A DNA stretch of 64,000 nt from Deltaproteobacteria bacterium (lineage in GTDB: Bacteria; Desulfobacterota_D; UBA1144; Nemesobacterales; Nemesobacteraceae), in the NCBI GenBank assembly GCA_029262295.1, contig JAJCZR010000011.1, forward strand, positions 802-64,801. The letters run 5' to 3'. The position numbers and the translations under genes were made by a program. This document shows, in pieces, positions 17,801 to 30,624 of this stretch. The notes beneath the pieces were generated by a model. It did no database searches, had not been told where the DNA came from, and saw only the letters and a program-made list of their open reading frames with translations. Position 1 is the stretch's first letter, and every line of letters starts with the position of its first letter.

Positions 17801-18344
17801 TCCTTATTCCTCTTCCCCCTCCACCATAAGCTGCTTTTATAAGCACCGGGTATCCGGCTTTTTTTGCAAACTGCGCTGCCTCATTATCATTTTTTATAAA
17901 GTCTTTTGTTCCAGGAACTATTGGCACATTTACCTTTTCAGCAATTTTTCTTCCCTCTGCTTTATCTCCCATTTTAAATATTGCATTTGAAGAAGGGCCA
18001 ATAAATTTAATTCCTGCTTTTTTACATGCTTTTGCAAAATCAGGGTTTTCAGAAAGAAATCCATAACCGGGGTGAATTGCATCCACATCTTTTTCAAGTG
18101 CAAGCTCTATAATTCCTTCAATATCCAAATAGGCTTCAACAGGGCCCTTCCCTTTTCCCACGAGATAAGCTTCATCGGCTTTTATTCTGTGAAGTGATAG
18201 ATAGTCTTCTTCCGAATATATAGCAACTGTGGTTATATCAAGTTCGGTACACGCCCTTATAACCCTTATTGCAATCTCACCACGGTTTGCTATCAAAACT
18301 CTATTGAATGGTCTAATTCTATTACTGCTATTTTTTTTATTCAT
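14880..18344 (-). CDS. pyc: Pyruvate carboxylase, single chain
   Basis: IANRGEIA, HPGYGFLSEN, RDCSVQRRHQK, DTTFRDAHQSLLATR, biotin motif EAMKM; 1154 aa. Confidence 0.97.
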   Translation of the reverse strand: MNKKNSSNRIRPFNRVLIANRGEIAIRVIRACTELDITTVAIYSEEDYLSLHRIKADEAYLVGKGKGPVEAYLDIEGIIELALEKDVDAIHPGYGFLSENPDFAKACKKAGIKFIGPSSNAIFKMGDKAEGRKIAEKVNVPIVPGTKDFIKNDNEAAQFAKKAGYPVLIKAAYGGGGRGIRICKDKKSLLGQLSEARQEAKNAFGNDAMLIEKFLIDPKHIEVQILADEHGNVVHLFERDCSVQRRHQKVVEIAPSVTLSEELKNSIYDAAVRIAKGAKYNNAGTVEFLVDSDENFYFIEMNTRIQVEHTVTEMVTGIDIVKAQIRIAEGYSFEDKEIKIPPQDKIELRGNAIQCRITTENPNENFRPDIGYINAYRSPGGFGVRLDAASAFVGAAITPFYDSMLVKLTTWGDTFDEAISKMDRALDEFKIRGVATNIQFLKNVISHPVFKNGECETTFLEKNPEVFNIEEDPDNTTKVLNFIGDITINRAIERPLKWESNPPTIFKLESLVDDVLPSEHRKIFTEKGPEALSKWILKQKKLLVTDTTFRDAHQSLLATRMRTFDILGAADFTSQAEKDVFSFEMWGGATFDVCMRFLHESPWERISRLREKIPHGMFQMLLRGSNAVGYKNYPDNVVDEFIKKAASNGIDVFRVFDCFNWVENMKLAINSALKTGKVVEAAICYTGDITDESRDKYTLSYYVNVAKKLAKMGVHIIAIKDMAGLCKPFAAEKLIKAVKEETGLPIHFHTHATSGNGEATIIKASEAGVDIVDLAISSLSGTTAQPSLNAVVAALEGTKRDTELDLNKLNKLSSYWESVREFYFPFETDMKSPNADVYLYEIPGGQYTNLRAQATSLGLGDRWEDVKRMYAEVNQLFGDIIKVTPSSKVVGDMSLYLVQNSLTTDDVFDSDKNISFPESVVEMLRGDLGQPYKGFPKKLQKAVLDNEKPSKIRPGKHIKNIDFNKEMEELKKELGDNIDETDFISYQLYPQVFKDFYNKKSQYGDISVIPTKAFYFGMEPGEELTILDEEGISTQIKLFAIGETESNGMVPMLFEVNGHPRPVRVVDSSSELKSEANEKADPSVEGHIGSPLPGKVMNYLVEVGDIVKKDQPLFVIEAMKMQTNVKSQIKGKVKRIVIEQGSNAEAGDLVLEIE

Positions 18345-18413
18345 GAAAACCTCATGTAAAATGTAAGTTGTAACTATAGAAAATATATTAAAAATCCTAT
18401 ATTAACAATAAGT

Positions 18414-18596
18414 ATGAAAGAATTAACATATAAAGTAGTAGAAATTTCTCTTGTAACTGACGAAGAAATTGAAAAAACTATAAACGAGTGGGTTAAAGAA
18501 GGCTGGGATTATGATGGTATTCAGTTTGCAATGAGAGACTCATCAAAAAGGCCTTCTATGGCATTTCTTACTTTTATAAAAAAAGAGACCAAATAA
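18414..18596 (+). CDS. Small DUF4177-like protein
   Basis: YKVVEI...IEKTINEWVKEGW pattern typical of DUF4177; 60 aa. Confidence 0.65.
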   Translation: MKELTYKVVEISLVTDEEIEKTINEWVKEGWDYDGIQFAMRDSSKRPSMAFLTFIKKETK

Positions 18597-18597
18597 A

Positions 18598-19032
18598 TTA
18601 ACTGCTTACAAACCCTTTCCAATTAATTAGTATTGCACCTGTAATAACAAATACTATTCCAAGTATTCTTACAGGGCCGAAGTTCTCACCAAGAAACATA
18701 TAGGCATAAAAAGCTGTAAACATAGGGAATGTTGCAACAATTGTAACAATTTTAGAAGCATCATCCATTTTTAGTGCATAAAGATATAAAAGAAGACCAA
18801 CCATTGCACCAATTCCAGAAAGTATTATCCATATTAGCGCCCTTTTGTCAGTCTCAACAAAATGAATAATTTTGCCTGTAGTAAATCCATATATCGTGAG
18901 ACATAAAGTAGTGAATATAAACCTTATGGTAATCATTGTATAAGGAGATGCGCCCTTTAAACCAAGTTTTTCAAAAATTGGGTTTATTCCCCATATACAT
19001 GCAACAAAAAAAGCGATTAGAGCAGCCTGCAT
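18598..19032 (-). CDS. Single-domain EamA/DMT membrane protein
   Basis: About 5 hydrophobic helices; WGINPIFEK, LGENFGPVRILGIVFVITG. Confidence 0.85.
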   Translation of the reverse strand: MQAALIAFFVACIWGINPIFEKLGLKGASPYTMITIRFIFTTLCLTIYGFTTGKIIHFVETDKRALIWIILSGIGAMVGLLLYLYALKMDDASKIVTIVATFPMFTAFYAYMFLGENFGPVRILGIVFVITGAILINWKGFVSS

Positions 19033-19047
19033 AACAACCTCCAGTTT

Positions 19048-19776
19048 TTAAAGAAATTGAATAATTTCAATAATATCATTAATTCTGTTAACACTTTGCT
19101 GATTAATATATTTTTGATCCTTGTCCAAAAAAACAGCGTTCAATCCTAAGGTGATGGGAGATATATAATCATTAACATAGTTGTCACCTATATGAACACA
19201 CTCAAATGGTTGTAAGCCATTTCTATCTAATGCAAGTTGAAATATTTCTGTATCGGGTTTGGCGTAACCAGACTCACTCGAGATAACAAAATCATCAAAA
19301 AAATCATATATCTTGAGGCTCCTACATACGTCATAAACTCTTGAATCAAAATTAGATACAACAATTAGTTTGTAGTTTTTGTTTTTGAGAAATGAAAGTG
19401 TATCAATAGTGTCAGGGAATATCTTCCAGGCACTTGTTCTGAATATTTCAAAAAGATCTTCAAAATAACTATCAAAATCAGGGAACATTCCAATATCATC
19501 ATAAACATTTTTCACAACATCATACCACCATTTTTTCTCGAGAATTTTTCTCTCGCCGTCTGTTACATTACCAAAAGCCAAAGGAGGTGCGGAAGAAAAA
19601 TGTGTTGAAAATGCTTTTTTCAAATCATCAGAAGATGGATTAATTCCATATTTTTTTGCAGGAAAAGCATAAGTGTTACCTAAACCATTTTTTATATAAA
19701 AAAGTGTGTCGGCTGCATCAAAAAACACAGCTTTAATATTTTCAAATTTCAAATTATCCTCCAGTGTTAAAAGCAA
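19048..19776 (-). CDS. HAD-superfamily hydrolase (subfamily IA)
   Basis: FFDAADTL motif I, VSNFD, GYAKPD, HIGDNYVND; TTG start is uncertain. Confidence 0.88.
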   Translation of the reverse strand: MLLTLEDNLKFENIKAVFFDAADTLFYIKNGLGNTYAFPAKKYGINPSSDDLKKAFSTHFSSAPPLAFGNVTDGERKILEKKWWYDVVKNVYDDIGMFPDFDSYFEDLFEIFRTSAWKIFPDTIDTLSFLKNKNYKLIVVSNFDSRVYDVCRSLKIYDFFDDFVISSESGYAKPDTEIFQLALDRNGLQPFECVHIGDNYVNDYISPITLGLNAVFLDKDQKYINQQSVNRINDIIEIIQFL

Positions 19777-19936
19777 TTTTAATATACACTCTATACTCAG
19801 AAGAAATAGATAAAATAGGATATTTTTTGGTAATCAGAAAGATAATTGGAAAACAATGAACTAACTGATAAAATAAAGTCACTAATCGAGGAACACTGTT
19901 TTACAACTAAACCTTATTTCCCTCGGAGTTATAACT

Positions 19937-20299
19937 TTGGCAAAAGCAATTTATGCAATATTGGAGGATGAAGAACTTGAATCAAAAGTAAAAGCTTCGG
20001 CAGAAAAACAAGAATTGGAATTATATGTAATAGATGACATAAATGTATTTAATGAAACTATTAGCAAGAAAGTACCAAGAATTATAATTATTGCCCTCGG
20101 TTCGCAAAATATCGCAGTTGAAGCTATCATTAATATAGTAAGAAGCACAAACAGATTAAAATATGTTTATATCATCGGTGTTACTCCAAATGTTGATACA
20201 AACAGTATGAGCAAATTTGTTGCAAGTAAGTGTAATATAGTTGTTTCAAAAGCAAAATTTACAAGAGAAATAGATCAACACATCAAAAGAAATTTATAA
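19937..20299 (+). CDS. Stand-alone receiver-like domain lacking the phosphoacceptor Asp
   Basis: Alternating beta/alpha REC pattern; IIIIALG where REC has xxxxD; TTG start with GGAG SD. Confidence 0.6.
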   Translation: MAKAIYAILEDEELESKVKASAEKQELELYVIDDINVFNETISKKVPRIIIIALGSQNIAVEAIINIVRSTNRLKYVYIIGVTPNVDTNSMSKFVASKCNIVVSKAKFTREIDQHIKRNL

Positions 20300-20305
20300 T
20301 TACAC

Positions 20306-20755
20306 TTAAGACAAAACATACTCCAAAATAGAAACAACCTGTTCAGGTGTTCTGGCTGTTGCTTTAGAAGCTGAGTCGACTTCCTTTAACGCGTGATCGT
20401 GCTCTTCATCATGGAGGGTTATTAGTGATTTGTTTAAAGCAGATGCAAAACCCGCATCAAAGGCGGCATTCCACTGTTTATACTTTGGGCCAAACCTTAC
20501 TACAACAACATCAGAATCCTTTATCATTTTTTGTCTTCTGATAGCATTTAATCCTGAACCCTTTCTGTCACGCCAAAAAGGACTTTCTTCACTACCCAAT
20601 ATATTCACACCAGCCATGTCGCTTAAATCATGATCTGTAACTGGTGAGGTAAATTCAATAGCTAATCCTTTATCACTCGACCCAGAGACAATCCTCTCTC
20701 TCCAGTCAGTATGAATTTCACCTGCAAGATAGACGTTTAATTTGTTATTTTTCAT
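20306..20755 (-). CDS. ytoQ: YtoQ-family protein (nucleoside 2-deoxyribosyltransferase-like fold)
   Basis: VYLAGEIHTDWR, DVVVVRFGPKYKQWNAAFDAG, HALKEVD. Confidence 0.85.
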   Translation of the reverse strand: MKNNKLNVYLAGEIHTDWRERIVSGSSDKGLAIEFTSPVTDHDLSDMAGVNILGSEESPFWRDRKGSGLNAIRRQKMIKDSDVVVVRFGPKYKQWNAAFDAGFASALNKSLITLHDEEHDHALKEVDSASKATARTPEQVVSILEYVLS

Positions 20756-20810
20756 TTTTGTAACCTCTCAAATTGAAATTATTCGGAGAATAAATTAACA
20801 TAAAACACCC

Positions 20811-20828
20811 ATCTTTAATATTAAAGAT
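20811..20828. promoter_or_regulatory. Perfect 18-bp palindrome, candidate operator between ytoQ and frmA
   Basis: ATCTTTAATATTAAAGAT is its own reverse complement and lies in the 121-bp divergent intergenic region. Confidence 0.55.
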
Positions 20829-20876
20829 TTCTTTTACGAAGTTAATAATTTATCTTTTTGGAAAAGGGAGAACAAA

Positions 20877-21986
20877 ATGAAAACAAAGGCAGCAGTCGCA
20901 TGGGAAGCCAAAAAAGATTTAGAAATAGAGGAAATTGAACTTGAAGGCCCAAAAAAAGGGGAAGTTCTTTGCAGGATGGTTGCAACTGGTGTTTGCCATA
21001 CTGACGCATACACACTTTCAGGAATAGATCCTGAAGGAGTGTTTCCAACCGTTCTTGGCCATGAAGGGGGGGCAATTGTTGAAGAAGTTGGACCTGGGGT
21101 GAAAAATATAAAAGTGGGTGACCATGTAATTCCACTTTATATCCCAGAGTGCCAAAACTGTGAATACTGTAACTCAGGCAAAACAAATCTTTGCCAGTCT
21201 GTACGTGAAACTCAGGGAAAGGGTTTAATGCCTGATGGCACATCACGGTTTTCAAAAAATGGAAAAACTATTTATCATTACATGGGCACATCCACATTTT
21301 CTGAGTACTCGGTTATACCTGAAATATCTCTTGCAGTTGTAAATAAACAAGCACCTCTTGATAAAGTCTGCTTACTTGGGTGTGGAATTACGACTGGAAT
21401 TGGTGCAGTTTTGAATACAGCAAAAGTGAAGCCTGGTTCCTCTGTTGCGGTGTTTGGACTTGGTTGTATTGGGCTTTCTGTTATTCAGGGAGCAGTCATG
21501 GCAAAAGCCGAAAGGATAATTGCTATTGATATAAATAAAGACAAATTCGAGATTGCAGGCCAACTTGGAGCCACTGATTTTGTAAATCCTCAGAATTATG
21601 ATGATCCTATCCAGGAAGTAATCGTTGATATGACAAAAGGAGGAGTTGATTACTCATTTGAATGCGTTGGAAATGTTGGACTTATGCGTTCAGCACTTGA
21701 ATGTTGCCACAAAGGTTGGGGAGAATCAACAATAATTGGAGTTGCAGGAGCTGGTGAAGAAATTCAGACCCGTCCTTTCCAACTTGTCACAGGAAGGGTT
21801 TGGAGAGGAAGTGCATTTGGAGGGGTAAAAGGAAAATCTGAACTTAATAGTTATGTAGACGACTATATAAAAGGTGAAATTAAAATAGATGAACTTGTGA
21901 GTTTTAATCTTCCTCTTGAGAAAATAAACGAAGCATTTCATCTGATGCATGAAGGAAAAAGTATAAGGAGCGTTATTCACTATTAA
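20877..21986 (+). CDS. frmA: S-(hydroxymethyl)glutathione dehydrogenase / class III alcohol dehydrogenase
   Basis: GVCHTD, LGHEG, structural Zn CQNCEYC...[22 protein letters not shown]. Confidence 0.96.
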
Positions 21987-21992
21987 TTAGCT

Positions 21993-22847
21993 ATGGAGAC
22001 AATAAATCTAAAAAGCACGCACAGATCTTTTGACGGTTTTGTGGAATTTTACACACACAAATCAGAATCTACTTCAACTGAAATGACATTTTCAGTTTAT
22101 AAGCCCGATCTTGAAACCAAAGAAAAAGTTGCAGCACTTTTCTTTCTTTCAGGGCTCACATGTAATGAAGAAAATTTTATTACTAAAGCCGGAGCAATCC
22201 AGTATGCATCAAAACACAACCTTATGCTTGTCTGTCCTGATACAAGCCCGAGGGGAACAAATATTGCTGGAGAATTTGATGATTGGGATTTTGGATCAAG
22301 TGCAGGTTTTTATGTGAATGCTACGACTTTAAACTGGAATAAACACTACAGAATGTACGACTATGTCGTAAAAGAACTTCCAGAGATCATATTCACTTAT
22401 TTTAATGTAGACAAAAATAAAGTTGCAATTTCTGGTCACTCTATGGGCGGACATGGCGCATTGGTCATTGGTTTAAGAAACCCTGACATCTTCAAATCAA
22501 TCTCAGCATTCGCTCCTATTTGTGCACCTTCTGATTGCCAGTGGGGAATAAAAGCATTTACTTATTACCTTGGAGAAAACAAAGAAGACTGGAAACAGTA
22601 TGATGCTTCGGAATTAATTAAGACTGCAAACCCTAAAAAGAAAATACTTATAGATCAGGGAACTTCTGATAAATTTCTTGATGAACAACTATTGCCAGAA
22701 ATACTTGTTGAATCGGCAATGAAAGCAAAATTTCCTGTAGAAGTAAGAATGCATGATGGATATGATCACAGTTTTTACTTTATCTCAACATTTATTAAAG
22801 ATCATATCGAGTTTCATGTGGAAAATCTGAATTCTTTACAATTATAG
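21993..22847 (+). CDS. fghA: S-formylglutathione hydrolase
   Basis: LSGLTC, PDTSPRG, GHSMGGHGAL, YDHSFYFI. Confidence 0.95.
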   Translation: METINLKSTHRSFDGFVEFYTHKSESTSTEMTFSVYKPDLETKEKVAALFFLSGLTCNEENFITKAGAIQYASKHNLMLVCPDTSPRGTNIAGEFDDWDFGSSAGFYVNATTLNWNKHYRMYDYVVKELPEIIFTYFNVDKNKVAISGHSMGGHGALVIGLRNPDIFKSISAFAPICAPSDCQWGIKAFTYYLGENKEDWKQYDASELIKTANPKKKILIDQGTSDKFLDEQLLPEILVESAMKAKFPVEVRMHDGYDHSFYFISTFIKDHIEFHVENLNSLQL

Positions 22848-22966
22848 TATTTCAATATTTGCGAGAACCAACTGATATTCTTTTAAACACTGGTTTCCTA
22901 TTAAGTTGATAGGGTATATTAATATTTGTTTATTTATGTAATTGAAACATAAGTAAGGAGATAGAA

Positions 22967-24259
22967 ATGGAATATCAAAACCCTGTAATTGTAATCCCGG
23001 GGATTACTGCCACAGACCTTTATGACGACTATCCATTAGCCACTGAAAAAATATGGTCGATGGTATTAAACAAAGATTACGAACGGGTAAAACTACATCC
23101 CGACAATCTAAAATTTGAAGCTATTGAGCCTTCCCGCACTTATCCCGGCAGAATCTTTGATATTTACAATGATTTAATCAAAGCAATGAGATACGAATTA
23201 TCACCTAAAGCTGACAGACCAACCCCTGTATTCGCTTTTTCTTATGACTGGAGAAATGATATACAGATTACAGCTAAAAAATTATCCGACTTGATAGATG
23301 AAGTGCTAGACAGAACTCTTTTATTAAAACATTACAAAGGAGCAAAAGGAAAAATAAAAGTAGATATTGTAGGGCATTCTATGGGTGGATTAATAATTAC
23401 TGAATACCTCTCGCAACAGAAAGGCAAATCAAAAGTTGGGAAAGTTGTCTCAATGGGCACTCCTTTTCTTGGTTCAATAGAGGCAATAGTAAAAATCACA
23501 ACTGGAATGGGGCTAATATCCGGGAGTATCCCAAAGGAAAGGGAGCGTGAAGCAGCAAGGGCAACGCCTTCCATTTACCAGCTTTTTCCATCTTATGAGA
23601 AATGTGTAATTGATCAGGATGGTAACCAAGTTGATTTATTTAAACCTGTTAATCTTCAAAGAAGCATAATGAAGAGTTTGGCAGAATACGTTCGTCTTTA
23701 CTCTGTTGATACACTTGCAGATGATAGAGATAAAAAAGCAAATGAAATACTTCTGGATTTATTAATAGGCGGCGTTGAGCATAGAGAAAAAGTTAACAAT
23801 TTCAGTTTGTCTGATGCAAAATTAAAACAAAATGACTGGCTTGCAATTGTTGGTGTAAATAGTGAAACAAGGATCCAGATAAGTGTCAAAAACACAAATC
23901 GTGGCCCCTGGTTTTTAATTGATCAAGATCAATTTATAAATGAATTAGAAGAAGATTCAAAATCCAGAAAAACAGGTGATGGCACCGTTCCTCTATTAGG
24001 TGCAATTCCACCATTTATTCCAGAAAGCAAACTTGTTTGCGTAACTCCAGATGATCTAGGAAGATTCGAGTTATGAGATAAATTCTTTTTAAAAATGGCC
24101 GGATTACATGGGGTCTTGCCTACTTTAAACCTTGTACAAAGGTTAACTGTCAAACATCTAAAAACTGATTATAGAGGGGAAATATGGGGAAGAAGAGTCC
24201 CAGGAGCAACTAACTGGAATCCTCCAATTGAGGATTTAACTGATGAAAGGGGGTACTAA
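22967..24259 (+). pseudogene. LCAT/PGAP1-like lipase or acyltransferase interrupted by one in-frame TGA at 24074-24076
   Basis: VIPG...YDWR, nucleophile GHSMGG, GDGTVP. The frame stays open for 60 codons after the TGA (DKFFLKMAGLHGVLPTLNLVQRL...PPIEDLTDERGY) to TAA 24257-24259. Confidence 0.7.
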
Positions 24260-24295
24260 CTCAATTCTATTAATTAAAATATTTAGCAATAATAT

Positions 24296-27200
24296 TTAAT
24301 ACCCCAAATTAGGCTGCAACCATTTTTCTGTTTCTTTAATAGACTGCCCTTTTCTTTTTGCATAGTCTTCAACCTGATCTTCTAGGATTTTACCAAGATT
24401 AAAGTATCGTGATTCAGGATGTGCAAAGTAAAAACCTGAAACAGAACTTGGAGGGTTCATTGCATAGCTTTCAGTAAGGGTAATTCCCGTATGCTTTTCA
24501 GCATCAAGAAGTTTCCAAAGAATTCCCTTTTCAGTATGATCTGGACATGAAGGATATCCAGGAGCTGGCCTGATTCCTCTGTATTTCTCGTCTATCAGTT
24601 CTTCGTTATCAAGGTTTTCTTTTTTCCCGTAGCCCCAAATTTCCCTTACTTTTTTATGTATCATCTCAGTCATTGCCTCAGCAATTCTATCGCCAAGGGC
24701 CTGTATCATTATGGCAGTATAATCATCGTTATTATTTTTAAATTCTTTTGAATACTCATCTACTTTACTTCCAGAAGTTACTGCAAATCCTCCAATATAA
24801 TCAATTTTGCCAATTTCTTTTGGAATAATAAAATCAGAAAGGCAGTAAAAAGTTTGATCATTAGCTTTTTTTCTCTGGCCTTGTTGCCTTAAGAAATGAA
24901 CAGTTTTAATAATTTGCGACCTGGACTCATCAGAGTATATCTCGATATCATCCCCTACCCTGTTTGCTGGCCATATTCCAACAATAGCTGATGGATTAAA
25001 TTTTTTTTCATTAACAATCTCACCAAGAAGCTTCTCAGCATCATTATAAAGTTCTCTTGCCTGTTTGCCCCATTTTGGATTATCCAATATTTTTGGAAAA
25101 GAACCTTTTAGTTCCCAAGTCCAGAAAAATGGTGACCAGTCAAAATAATTGACCACTTCTTCAAGATCAATATCATTAAAATGAATTAACCCGGTCTGAG
25201 ATGGCACATCAGGAGTATAACTCTCCCAATCTGCATTAAATCCTTTTTTCCTTGCTTCATTTATTGAGACATAATCTATTTTAGTCTTACTTTGTTCAAA
25301 CCTTTCTCTTTGCTTTTGCTGAGTTTCTTTTAACTTATCTTTATATTCATCCACTTTCTTTGGGTTAAGAAGATCATTACACACATTAACAACCAAAGAG
25401 GCATCCTGCACATGATCCACAACTCCATTGTAATGAGGTGCTATTTTGATTGCAGTATGAGCACTGCTTGTTGTAGCCCCACCAATTAAAAGTGGAATAT
25501 CAAGCTTCAGTCTTTCCATCTCTGTGGCGTTATAAGCCATTTCATCGAGAGAGGGGGTAATAAGTCCACTTAGTCCAATAATATTCGCCCCAACTTCTTT
25601 TGCTGTGTTAAGGATTTTTTCACAAGGAACCATTACACCTAGATCAATTACCTCATAGTCGTTACAGGAAAGAACAACTGATACAATATTTTTTCCAATA
25701 TCATGTACATCGCCCTTTACAGTGGCAATCACAAATTTGCCTTTTACTTTTTTATCTGCTTGATCTTCTTCATCTTCCATAAAAGGAGTAAGATAGGCAA
25801 CTGCCTTTTTCATTACACGTGCACTTTTAACTACCTGTGGTAAAAACATCTTACCTTCTCCAAAGAGCTTACCTACAAACTTCATTCCATCCATAAGTGG
25901 TCCTTCTATAACATCAAGTGGCCTGGGAAATTTTTGTCTTGCTTCTTCTGTGTCATCCTCAACGAAATCGGCTATACCATTTACAAGTGCATAACTAAGT
26001 CTCTTCTCGACAGGGTTACTTCGCCACTTCTTCTCTTCTTTCTTCTTATCCTCACTTTTTTGTCCTTTGAACTGCTCTGCAAATTCAACGAGATTCTCTG
26101 TTGCTTCAGATGTTTTGTTTAAAAGAACATCTTCAACTTTTTGAAGGAGCTGCTCTTCAACATCATCGTATACAGCAAGCATACCGGCATTTACAATCCC
26201 CATATCAAGCCCTGCATTAATAGCATGATATAAAAATGCACTGTGCATTGCTTCCCTTACAATATTGTTTCCACGAAGCGAAAATGAAACATTACTTACG
26301 CCACCGCTTGTAAGTGCCTCTGGACACTTTTCCTTTATTTCTCTCACAGATTCAATAAAATCGACAGCGTAATTGTTATGTTCTTCAATTCCCGTGGCCA
26401 CAGTCAAAATATTAGGGTCAAAGATAATATCACTTGGCTCCATTCCAACTTGTTCAGTCAGTATTTTATAAGCCCTCTCACATATTCTTACTTTATCTTC
26501 TTTATTTGCAGCCTGTCCTTTTTCATCAAATGCCATCACAACAACAGCAGCACCATAACGCATTACTTTTTTTGCCTGTTCAATGAACTTTTCTTCTCCT
26601 TCTTTCATGCTTATTGAGTTAACAATACATTTCCCCTGAACGCATCTAAGGCCAGCTTCAATTACAGAAAATTTGGAACTATCTATCATTATGGGCACTT
26701 TTGCTATATCAGGTTCTGAAGCGATTAGGTTTAAGAACCTCTCCATACAGGCTTCGCTATCAAGAAGTCCTTCATCAAAATTCACATCTATTATATTTGC
26801 CCCATTTTCAACCTGCTGGAGCGCAACACTAAGTGCCGACTCATAATCATCATCTTTTACTAATTTAGCGAATCTTGGGGAACCTGTAACATTGGTTCTC
26901 TCCCCCACCATAATAAAAGGAGAGTCTTTTTCATTTTTTATTGTTAGTGGTTCAAGGCCACTCAATCTTGTAGCGGGTTCAATATCCGGGATTTTTCTTG
27001 GTGGATGATCCTTAATTGTTTTAACGATTTCACCTATATGATCAGGAGTCGTTCCACAGCAGCCACCAACCATGTTTAAAAAACCACTTTTTCCAAAATC
27101 ATCGAGAAGCTCTGCTGTAATATTTGGTGTTTGATCGTAGCCTGTTTCGCTAAGTGGATTTGGAAGACCTGCATTTGGATAGCAACTAATAAAACAGTCG

Positions 27201-28009
27201 GCTATATTGGAAAGTTCCTGTATATAAGGCCTCATATCTTCTGCACCTAATGCACAGTTAATACCAACGCTTAGAGGCCTTGCGTGCCTAACTGAGTTCC
27301 AAAACGCCCCGATAGTCTGCCCAGACAAGGTTCTGCCAGATTGATCTGTAATTGTAGCTGAAAGCATTACAGGAAGTCTTTTTCCAATATCTTCAAAAAG
27401 CTTTTCAATCGCAAAAATAGCTGCTTTCAAATTGAGTGTATCAAATGTTGTTTCAGGAAGCAGTATATCTACTCCGCCTTCTACAAGAGCTTCTGCCTGC
27501 TCATAGTAAGCTTCAACCAATTCTTCAAATGAAACGGCGCGAAATGCCGGATCATTTACATCCGGCGACATTGAAGCAGTTTTATTTGTTGGGCCCATTG
27601 CCCCTGCAACAAAACATTCACGCCCAGGATTCTCGTCCATTATTTGCCTGGCTACTTTTTTTGCAAGTTGAGCAGATTTAATATTTAAATCTTTTACAAC
27701 ACTTTCAAGCCCATAATCTGCCTGTGCAATGGAAGTGGAACTAAAAGTATTTGTCTCAACAATATCAGAGCCTGCTTCAAAATATTGGCGGTGAATTTCA
27801 GAAATAATATCAGGTCTAGTTAGAGAAAGAAGGTCGTTATTCCCCTTGAGATCAAGATTATGATCTTTAAATATTTCTCCTCTGAAATCCTCTTCTTCCA
27901 AGGTATGGCGCTGTATCATTGTGCCCATTGCACCATCTAAAAAGAGTATTCTTTCAGCGAGGAGTCTCTCTAATTTTTTATAAGTATCCGTTTTTTTTAA
28001 ACTATTCAT
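24296..28009 (-). CDS. metH: Cobalamin-dependent methionine synthase
   Basis: [25 protein letters not shown]12 motif [20 protein letters not shown]. Confidence 0.98.
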
Positions 28010-28067
28010 TTCGTATTTTTAACCAATAAATTAAAGATTATTAAATCAAGAGTGTATTACTTGGAAT

Positions 28068-28859
28068 TCACCAACTATTACGTAGCTCTCTTAACTTAAC
28101 AAAGACAGACTTTGGATCATCAGACATATCAGGGTCGTTTTTCTTTAGACCACTAATTATATTTGGATCATCCAAACGCATAAAAGGATTGTAAGTTTTT
28201 TCTTCACCTATTGTTGTAATTTTCTCGCCATTTTTTTCAACTTCTTTCAGTTTATCTTTTGCAGCCTGGTTATCTGGGGCAATACTCAAGGCAAACTTAA
28301 GATTATTTTCAGCATATCTGTGGCCTACAAGGAGTTTTAGGTTATCATCAAAACCCATAATTTTATTTGCAAAAGTAGTGTAAAGAATTTCAGGATCACC
28401 TCCATATCTGGTGTTTCCACAACCTGAAACAAAAACTGTATCTCCTATAAACAAATAATTCCCAATTTTTAAAGTTACGTGCTCAGGACAATGCCCTGGT
28501 GTATGGATTACTTTTATTGAATGTCTTCCAAAGCTTATTTCATCTCCATCTTCAATTGTTTCACTTCTGGGAGAAACATTATCCAGGCCTTTCTCGTGAA
28601 CAAGTATCTTGGACTCAAGGAAAACTTTAATTACCGGGTCATTTCCATGAATATGATCAGGATGAGTATGTGTATTTACAACATAATTAACCCTAAAATC
28701 ATTTTCCCTGATGATTTGCATAATTGTAATTACGTCAAATGGATCAATTACCAGACACTCTTTTGTTTCATCACAACTGATTATATAATTGTAGTTACTT
28801 CCGCTTTGCTCAGCAAGAAACCTGTGAATTGTAAAACCGTCTTCATTAATAATATGCAT
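28068..28859 (-). CDS. gloB: Hydroxyacylglutathione hydrolase (glyoxalase II)
   Basis: THTHPDHIHG metallo-beta-lactamase motif, TPGH, GDTVFVSGCG, EEKTYNPFMR. Confidence 0.85.
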   Translation of the reverse strand: MHIINEDGFTIHRFLAEQSGSNYNYIISCDETKECLVIDPFDVITIMQIIRENDFRVNYVVNTHTHPDHIHGNDPVIKVFLESKILVHEKGLDNVSPRSETIEDGDEISFGRHSIKVIHTPGHCPEHVTLKIGNYLFIGDTVFVSGCGNTRYGGDPEILYTTFANKIMGFDDNLKLLVGHRYAENNLKFALSIAPDNQAAKDKLKEVEKNGEKITTIGEEKTYNPFMRLDDPNIISGLKKNDPDMSDDPKSVFVKLRELRNSW

Positions 28860-28918
28860 CTTAGACTCCTTTTAGATATACTTTTAAATTACCTTTAAGT
28901 AATTACATAGGCAAAAAA

Positions 28919-29314
28919 ATGAATTTAATACCAATAAATATAATTGCAATACTACTTTTATTTGTGTCATGTGCAAAAGAAGAAATTGCCCCTGAATTCA
29001 ATATTCCGGGTATAAAAACCACAATTGCAAGAATTCAAATTTCCCCGCTTGCCCATGATGGTGCAAGAGTTGTAGTGACCGGATTTATTAAAAGCATTGA
29101 ACCTACAATAAAAGATGGGGAATCACACAAACTTATACTCTCTGACATTAAAGACAACAAAATAGAGATAGAATATAGTTCTGATTTTACAGGGGAAGTG
29201 GGAGAGCAGGTAGTAACCGGTGGATTATATAAAATGGATGTTAACAGGATTGTGGATGCAGAGGTTTACAGGTTTACAGTTGAAGATGATGTTATAAAAC
29301 CCCTTGAGAACTAA
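28919..29314 (+). CDS. Hypothetical lipoprotein, possible OB fold
   Basis: Signal peptide ending LFVSC; VVVTGFI...VVTGG.Y strand pattern. Confidence 0.65.
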   Translation: MNLIPINIIAILLLFVSCAKEEIAPEFNIPGIKTTIARIQISPLAHDGARVVVTGFIKSIEPTIKDGESHKLILSDIKDNKIEIEYSSDFTGEVGEQVVTGGLYKMDVNRIVDAEVYRFTVEDDVIKPLEN

Positions 29315-29326
29315 CAAATCCCAACT

Positions 29327-29355
29327 TTGACAACAATATTAATTATAGGTAATTT
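29327..29355 (+). promoter_or_regulatory. Sigma70-like promoter of the thrC-like/moaD-like pair
   Basis: TTGACA (29327-29332), N17, TAATTT. Confidence 0.5.
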
Positions 29356-29388
29356 TTACTGCTTTTATCAGCTTTTACGGGAAAATTT

Positions 29389-30624
29389 ATGAGTTTTGTT
29401 GAATCATTAAAATGTAAGGAATGCGGAGAGATATACCCAAAAGAGCCAATTCATGTTTGTGAAATATGCTTTGGACCACTTGAAGTAGTTTATAATTACG
29501 AAAAGATAAAATCCGTTTTAACAAAAGAGAAAATCTTATCCCGAAAGAAAAATATTTGGAGATATGCAGAGCTTCTTCCCATAGATGAGGCTCCAACCCT
29601 TGGGACCCAGGTTGGCTATACACCGCTTGTTAAAGCAGACAATCTTGCAAAAGCATTAGGAGTAAAAGAACTTTACGTAAAGAATGATGCGGTTTGCTAC
29701 CCCACTCTATCTTTTAAAGACAGGGTTGTATCAGTAGCACTTTCAAAGGCAAAAGAGTTTGGTTTTGATACAACTGGTTGTGCATCAACTGGAAACCTCG
29801 CAAATTCTGTTTCTTCAATTTCAGCATCAGGGAATTTAAAGAGTTTTATTTTTATTCCATATGATCTTGAACCCTCAAAGATAATGAACACATCTGTATA
29901 TGGAGCAAATGTAATTGCAATTAATGGAACTTATGACGATGTTAACAGACTTTGCAGTGAGATAGCCGGTGAATACGGCTGGGCATTTGTAAATATCAAT
30001 ATGAGGCCATATTACTCTGAAGGTTCTAAATCATATGCCTATGAAATAATGGAGCAACTCGGCTGGAAAACCCCCAAACATATTGTCTCACCAATGGCAA
30101 GTGGCTCACTTTTAACTAAAATCTGGAAAGCTATTAAGGAATTTGAACTTCTTGAATTCATTGAACCTTCTGATACAAAAGTTTATGGGGCACAGGCTAC
30201 AGGTTGTTCTCCAATATCCACTGCACTAAAAAACGGCTGGGAGATATATAAACCAGTAAAACCTGATACAATAGCCAAATCCCTTGCTATAGGCACGCCA
30301 GCTGATGGTTTTTATGCTATGAGCGTGATGAAAGAAAGCGGCGGCTGGGCTGAAGATGTAAGTGACCAGGAAATTATTGATGCAATTAAACTTCTTGCTG
30401 AGACTGAAGGTATATACACTGAAACGGCAGGCGGGGTTACCCTTGGCGTTGCAAAAAAACTTATTGAACAAAATAAAATACCGAAAGATGAATCTATTGT
30501 GGTTTGTATCACTGGAAATGGTTTAAAAACACAAGATGCAGTTGAAAGCAGTATTTCTAAACCGCATACTATTGAAGCTGACATAAAAGAGTTTCAGGAA
30601 CTTTATAAAAAATTAGAAAATTAG
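29389..30624 (+). CDS. thrC: Threonine synthase-like PLP enzyme (fold type II)
   Basis: N-terminal CKEC...CEIC ribbon, PTLSFKDR PLP lysine, ASTGNLA, ITGNGLK. Confidence 0.85.
   Translation: MSFVESLKCKECGEIYPKEPIHVCEICFGPLEVVYNYEKIKSVLTKEKILSRKKNIWRYAELLPIDEAPTLGTQVGYTPLVKADNLAKALGVKELYVKNDAVCYPTLSFKDRVVSVALSKAKEFGFDTTGCASTGNLANSVSSISASGNLKSFIFIPYDLEPSKIMNTSVYGANVIAINGTYDDVNRLCSEIAGEYGWAFVNINMRPYYSEGSKSYAYEIMEQLGWKTPKHIVSPMASGSLLTKIWKAIKEFELLEFIEPSDTKVYGAQATGCSPISTALKNGWEIYKPVKPDTIAKSLAIGTPADGFYAMSVMKESGGWAEDVSDQEIIDAIKLLAETEGIYTETAGGVTLGVAKKLIEQNKIPKDESIVVCITGNGLKTQDAVESSISKPHTIEADIKEFQELYKKLEN

Follow-up and report, generated by a model that had tools for sequence, protein, structure and literature searches.

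The window, by which we mean the whole 64,000-nucleotide stretch of DNA that was analysed, carries on its plus strand an open reading frame of 369 amino acids (22967..24076) that, according to the window's ORF list, starts at ATG 22967 and ends in ...DDLGRFEL-TGA, with the stop codon at 24074-24076. A Shine-Dalgarno sequence, AAGGAG, can be read from the sequence at 22955..22960 on the same strand, 6 nt 5' of the ATG. Judged by the reading frame, its Pfam match and its homologues, the ORF makes up the N-terminal 86% of an LCAT-like alpha/beta hydrolase; its exact 369-aa product is already on record in both NCBI and Logan. The genes upstream match the Pfam families ADH_N/ADH_zinc_N (Zn-dependent alcohol dehydrogenase) and Esterase (PF00756), and we read these two genes as frmA- and frmB-like; an ORF of metH length follows, convergent with the lipase gene, at 24296-28009 on the minus strand. 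Upstream of the alcohol-dehydrogenase-like gene, about 1.1 kb of sequence (19776-20877) is free of ORFs that reach 150 aa.

Beyond the TGA the same frame stays open for 60 sense codons, DKFFLKMAGLHGVLPTLNLVQRLTVKHLKTDYRGEIWGRRVPGATNWNPPIEDLTDERGY-TAA, with the TAA at 24257-24259. The metH ORF is 219 bp away when measured from the TGA, but only 36 bp away when measured from the TAA. The translated part contains a GHSMG motif with the putative nucleophile Ser138 (codon 23378..23380, plus strand) and a TGDGTVP motif with Asp338 (codon 23978..23980, plus strand), and no histidine follows Asp338 in the 369-aa product. The next histidine motif, GLHG (His381, codon 24107..24109, plus strand), lies 11 codons 3' of the TGA in the part of the gene that is no longer translated. 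This orphaned 3' end (24077..24259, plus strand) comprises the 60 intact codons and the original stop TAA, and encodes the histidine loop together with a conserved C-terminal WGRRxPG...WxPPI segment. An in-frame ATG within it (Met376, 24095..24097, plus strand) begins a 54-aa ORF; a genuine start at this codon is unlikely, and the sequence upstream of it, GAGATAAATTCTTTTTAAAA, has no purine run resembling a Shine-Dalgarno sequence. The original prediction described a lipase split by one in-frame UGA just before its probable catalytic histidine. When re-read from the sequence, all of its coordinates proved correct (the ORF end, the 60-codon continuation, the 219-bp gap and the ATG at 24095), as did its two remarks that the 369 residues hold no histidine after GDGTVP and that GLHG lies just beyond the stop.

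We searched a large protein collection with the read-through product, in which the stop was replaced by X, and obtained 1600 matches. Almost all of the best 120 of these 1600 matches were 424-435 aa long (a few reached 520 aa), with 99-100% query coverage and 56-75% identity, and the sole one among these 120 that ended near residue 369 was a partial sequence at a contig end, 89% identical to the query. In alignments of 26 (A1) and 64 (A3) sequences the tail ran gap-free through to the last residues. Scanning species-representative genomes yielded 80 loci, from Woeseiaceae, Gemmatimonadota, Planctomycetota, Desulfobacterota, Acidobacteriota, Chloroflexota, Rhizobiales (including the cultured Neorhizobium huautlense), Cyanobacteria, Ignavibacteria and others. 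By tblastn, 67 of the 80, drawn from more than 12 phyla, spanned residues 365-400 and were used for the residue counts below; an in-frame stop was found in none of these 67 genomic loci. The concern that homologues might simply end where the TGA stands, leaving the extension spurious, was thus dispelled: they are full length (424-471 aa, coverage 99-100%). By our estimate, a random frame of 60 codons would be open about 1% of the time at roughly 36% GC, and the tail matches the C-termini of all homologues residue by residue, with the same end point; the open tail is therefore more than chance. More than 100 database homologues and the 67 loci, with lengths of 420-435 aa, align over the entire read-through product, and these comparisons show that the true product of the gene is about 430 aa long.

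The relatives' gene neighbourhoods are not conserved and give no clue to function. A methylmalonyl-CoA mutase gene lies downstream in one relative (L001), a second (L002) has a HAD hydrolase upstream and metH about 4 kb away, and in a third (L003) the gene is accompanied by a CLC channel and a GGDEF protein. Two 50-aa members of the protein cluster of another relative (P0001) were considered as C-terminal fragments of a recurrent split and rejected, as they proved to be unrelated sequences.

Family membership was assigned by the Pfam LCAT profile (PF02450), which matched with a score of 54.4 bits (cut-off 21, E = 1.6e-14), the aligned part being residues 86-212 only; no NCBIfam family matched. 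All three putative triad residues are invariant in the 64 aligned proteins, Ser138 and Asp338 also throughout A1, and among the genomic loci Ser138 is kept in 66/66 that could be scored, Asp338 in 67/67 and His381 in 67/67. The only other conserved histidine downstream, H397, is His in only 29 of the 67 loci and Phe in 36. Since His381 is invariant and completes the canonical Ser-Asp-His order, we infer that it is the sole candidate for the catalytic base, and the expectation that the histidine beyond the stop would be conserved was borne out. The intact allele described below encodes both the acid and the histidine of this putative triad, whereas in the window allele the histidine lies past the TGA and is missing from the translated product.

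An AlphaFold2 model of the read-through protein reached a pLDDT of 82.3 and a pTM of 0.83, with the histidine loop (379-384) below a pLDDT of 50. Searching the PDB with this model by Foldseek placed Tle4, LPLA2 and LCAT at the top (E from 2e-10 to 1e-6) and classical bacterial lipases lower; LPLA2 (4x92, 4x97) and LCAT (4xx1, 4x96) were matched with E from 1e-7 to 5e-7, probability 1.00 and TM of 0.38-0.50. A sequence search of the PDB with the family profile aligned only the nucleophile-elbow region of small lipases, and His381 was not covered. On the model we regard the fold assignment as solid, with the predicted triad geometry modelled around a low-confidence histidine loop. Judging from the same model, Tle4-type lipases may be nearer in structure to the bacterial clade than the eukaryotic LCATs are, though the clade shows no T6SS context.

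At position 370, where the window has its stop, close homologues carry mostly arginine (22 of 25 in alignment A1 and more than 90% in A3). The wider family is more permissive, with R in 25, Q in 16, G in 12, K in 6, E in 3, A in 3, T in 1 and S in 1 of the 67 loci. In L001, which comes from a Thermodesulfobacteriota metagenome-assembled genome (MAG) and is 89% identical, the codon matching the window's TGA is AGA; this makes AGA (Arg) the ancestral codon and the change an A-to-T transversion at 24074. The original prediction of a recent nonsense mutation held up, but not the suggested origin from CGA or GGA, given that the sister strain described below and L001 both have AGA. Relative to L001, dN/dS was 0.074 for the 60 codons after the stop and 0.053 for the 257 aligned codons before it, and the tail contains no further stop or indel. 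As the tail resembles the pre-stop part in dN/dS and is free of further decay, purifying selection acted on both alike for nearly all of the tail's history, and the stop is very recent.

The state of position 24074 in other samples was read from Logan contigs of five biofilm-metagenome runs (X1 to X5), all from one study and of low depth (2-7x), at which minor variants may hide, among them a minor intact allele in X1 or X2; a look for RNA runs returned none. Two runs have T, hence TGA, at this position (X1 with a word depth of 6.7 and X2 with 3.3), and three have A, hence AGA (X3, X4 and X5 with word depths of 3.0, 2.9 and 2.1). In X4 and X5 the nucleotide at 24074 is the only difference in the contigs that cover it (166-222 bp). 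Over 18000-30000, X3 and X4 share many linked SNPs relative to X1, X2 and the window, for example at 19924, 20094, 20108, 20763, 20939, 22448, 22469, 22547, 28985-29020 and 29386-29469. Because X3 and X4 carry this long series of shared linked SNPs, the contigs represent two co-occurring strains less than 1% apart, one with the nonsense allele and the other with an intact gene. The youth of the stop fits its absence from a sister strain so little diverged. The original prediction had foreseen that a sense codon might be read at this position in other data, as it was in the X3, X4 and X5 contigs, and had proposed that it would then signal an assembly error rather than biology; that reading did not survive, as TGA recurs in two independent runs and AGA goes with the second linked haplotype.

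Several further differences between these contigs were observed. At 21224, and at four SNPs within 21 bp (22602, 22610, 22613 and 22622) in the PF00756 esterase gene, the window departs from X1 and X2 and agrees with the X3/X4 haplotype; the five mixed sites suggest either a consensus of a strain-mixing co-assembly or a short tract of inter-strain recombination. In metH, which lies on the minus strand, the X3 contig has five substitutions exactly 3 bases apart (25469, 25472, 25475, 25478 and 25481). This run resembles changes at the same codon position; it may be a recombination tract or have come as a patch from a strain that is more divergent. The X3 contig with the intact lipase allele shows three non-synonymous differences from the window, at 23619, 23669 and 23780 (D218A, M235V and H272N), the last at a position that is His in more than 90% of homologues, and the X3 sample may accordingly hold a third, more divergent variant of the lipase gene. 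Another X3 contig joins 27769 to 21007 across 32 unrelated letters; it is probably a low-depth chimeric contig and possibly a rearrangement in another strain. Finally, relative to the window an X4 contig has a 1-base deletion at 22853. This site is intergenic, between the lipase gene and the PF00756 esterase gene, and lies within an AT-rich stretch just 3' of a promoter-like site (22819-22848).

From these data, the explanation we favour, and hold to be very probably correct, is that 24074 is a segregating A-to-T nonsense polymorphism whose T state creates a histidine-less, young loss-of-function allele, or incipient pseudogene. An artefact, with AGA as the organism's true codon and the T at 24074 arising from an error or from a chimeric consensus, would be in keeping with the low depth of 3-7x and the A in three of the five runs; the window is also identical to no single run's contig (21224 and 22602-22622), so that the deposited contig may be a co-assembly consensus. 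However, the T is present in the independent X1 and X2 contigs with no other difference over the surrounding 480-2288 bp, and the A appears only in runs that have the other haplotype's linked SNPs. As the T is found again in two samples that were assembled separately and are both not identical to the window, a random error of sequencing or assembly, which the original prediction had listed among its explanations, is very unlikely, and we give the artefact reading as a whole little credence. We regard as even less credible the proposal that translation re-initiates at ATG 24095 and that the resulting 54-aa peptide with His381 complements the 369-aa body non-covalently. The in-frame ATG does stand only 18 nt past the stop, and the histidine-bearing tail is intact. 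Against this, the ATG lacks a Shine-Dalgarno sequence whereas the true start has AAGGAG; the contigs with the intact AGA codon are identical at 24095-24097, so the ATG was not recruited for re-initiation. The column of Met376 is V, I, L or M in homologues, with L (CTG) in L001. In the predicted model the break would also fall inside a helix (361-378), with both fragments losing part of it, and no split homologue was found among the best 120 matches or the 67 loci. Re-initiation, likewise one of the originally listed explanations, found no support in these data.

UGA is the leakiest stop codon in bacteria, and a further possibility is that near-cognate tRNAs (Trp, Cys or Arg) decode UGA-370 at a low but useful level, so that the allele would be hypomorphic and not null. 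Given how much position 370 varies among homologues, the protein should accept most residues inserted there and a read-through product would probably be active; the 60 codons past the stop are also still intact. However, the mutation is young, given a sister strain less than 1% divergent, and its youth would account for an intact tail equally well, and a stop at codon 370 occurs in 0/67 homologous loci. The stop is followed by G, as are three ordinary TGA stops in the window, and no stimulatory structure follows it: the fold of 24060-24150 is unremarkable against shuffled sequences (z = -0.9) and Rfam returned nothing relevant at E <= 1. Nothing thus points to read-through above background, and stop-codon read-through as originally suggested is without support here; we consider leaky termination at a useful level unlikely. 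The broader idea of a functional dosage polymorphism, in which the TGA allele is not null, owing to low and perhaps regulated read-through, or in which loss of the lipase is selected, seems to us more doubtful still. Programmed recoding of the UGA as selenocysteine, or an alternative genetic code, has an extremely small chance of being right. Thermodesulfobacteriota are a phylum rich in selenoproteins, and the closest named relative comes from a MAG of this phylum, yet the sister allele has Arg, and Cys and Sec are both absent from the position in all 67 loci. Selenocysteine was rejected as a candidate on the same unremarkable fold, in which no SECIS-like hairpin was present, and the alternative codes (tables 4 and 25) because the window is densely coding under table 11 and uses TGA as a terminator. 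The window is tiled by 48 long ORFs when read with table 11; of 44 long ORFs, 9 terminate in TGA, and in three of these a G follows, as it does at codon 370. No tRNA or suppressor tRNA was found within the window, and a scan of 22700-24500 gave no terminator-like site, so there is none past the TGA or the TAA.

Under the favoured explanation of a segregating nonsense allele, the intact gene, expressed from its own ribosome-binding site, would encode a serine hydrolase of about 430 aa that lacks a signal peptide and is cytoplasmic. In the lineage of the window's strain, the A-to-T change at 24074 would have turned codon 370 from AGA (Arg) into TGA, so that translation would stop 11 codons before the catalytic histidine and yield the 369-aa product. 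The loss of the histidine loop and the conserved C-terminal segment would take away the general base of the triad and with it the activity, leaving a product that would be catalytically dead and possibly unstable. Because the triad's general base, His381, is removed, the truncated protein is presumably inactive. In the sampled biofilm population the nonsense allele coexists with the sister strain's intact allele. We infer a loss that is either neutral or under mild selection.

For the databases, this means that the 369-aa protein on record would be the product of a truncated pseudogene and that the annotation should flag it as such, and that the 219-bp "intergenic" stretch before metH is the orphaned 3' end of a gene. 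Contigs from several samples offered a cheap way to tell whether a nonsense codon is a genuine strain-level allele or an assembly error. The nonsense allele implies no new mechanism, and recoding is unlikely. As a by-product, the comparisons define a putative triad (Ser138/Asp338/His381) and the true length for a widespread, uncharacterised clade of LCAT-like bacterial proteins.

The nearest characterised relatives by fold are Tle4, LPLA2 and LCAT. With LCAT and LPLA2 the window gene shares the alpha/beta hydrolase fold, the GHSMG elbow, the Ser-Asp-His order and the placement of Asp and His near the C-terminus; the triad of LPLA2 is Ser165-Asp327-His359 (PMC6027918). Unlike these enzymes, with which it has 12-18% identity and a TM of 0.4-0.5, the window protein is bacterial, has no signal peptide, begins directly at the first beta-strand and has 43 residues between Asp and His compared with 32 in LPLA2, and its gene is cut before the histidine. 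The best Foldseek match, the T6SS phospholipase effector Tle4 (PDB 4r1d; E = 2e-10, TMq 0.47, 16% identity), likewise has a lipase-like alpha/beta hydrolase fold and a large cap insertion, a likeness at the level of fold only. In contrast to Tle4, the family occurs in varied housekeeping contexts in many phyla, and no immunity or T6SS (VgrG/PAAR) gene stands among the immediate neighbours of the lipase gene.

The orthologues belong to a clade of proteins of about 430 aa, annotated as 'lipase/acyltransferase domain-containing protein' or 'pimeloyl-ACP methyl ester carboxylesterase', which are 40-89% identical over their full length. The clade spans Woeseiaceae, Gemmatimonadota, Desulfobacterota, Rhizobiales and others, has the same termini as the window gene and shares with it the motifs QNPVIVIPGIT, GHSMGG, PKEREREAAR, TGDGTVP, GxHG and WGRRxPG. 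The clade is a widespread group of uncharacterised bacterial LCAT/LPLA2-like serine hydrolases with a putative Ser138-Asp338-His381 triad. All members of the clade are intact, whereas the stop at codon 370 is present only in the window copy. Premature stops confined to one strain, in hydrolases that are not essential, are common and well understood, and compared with strain-level nonsense polymorphisms in bacterial populations the window's case has nothing distinctive. Like other young strain-level bacterial pseudogenes, the window gene combines a stop made by a single base, a downstream part free of decay and an intact allele in a sister strain less than 1% divergent.
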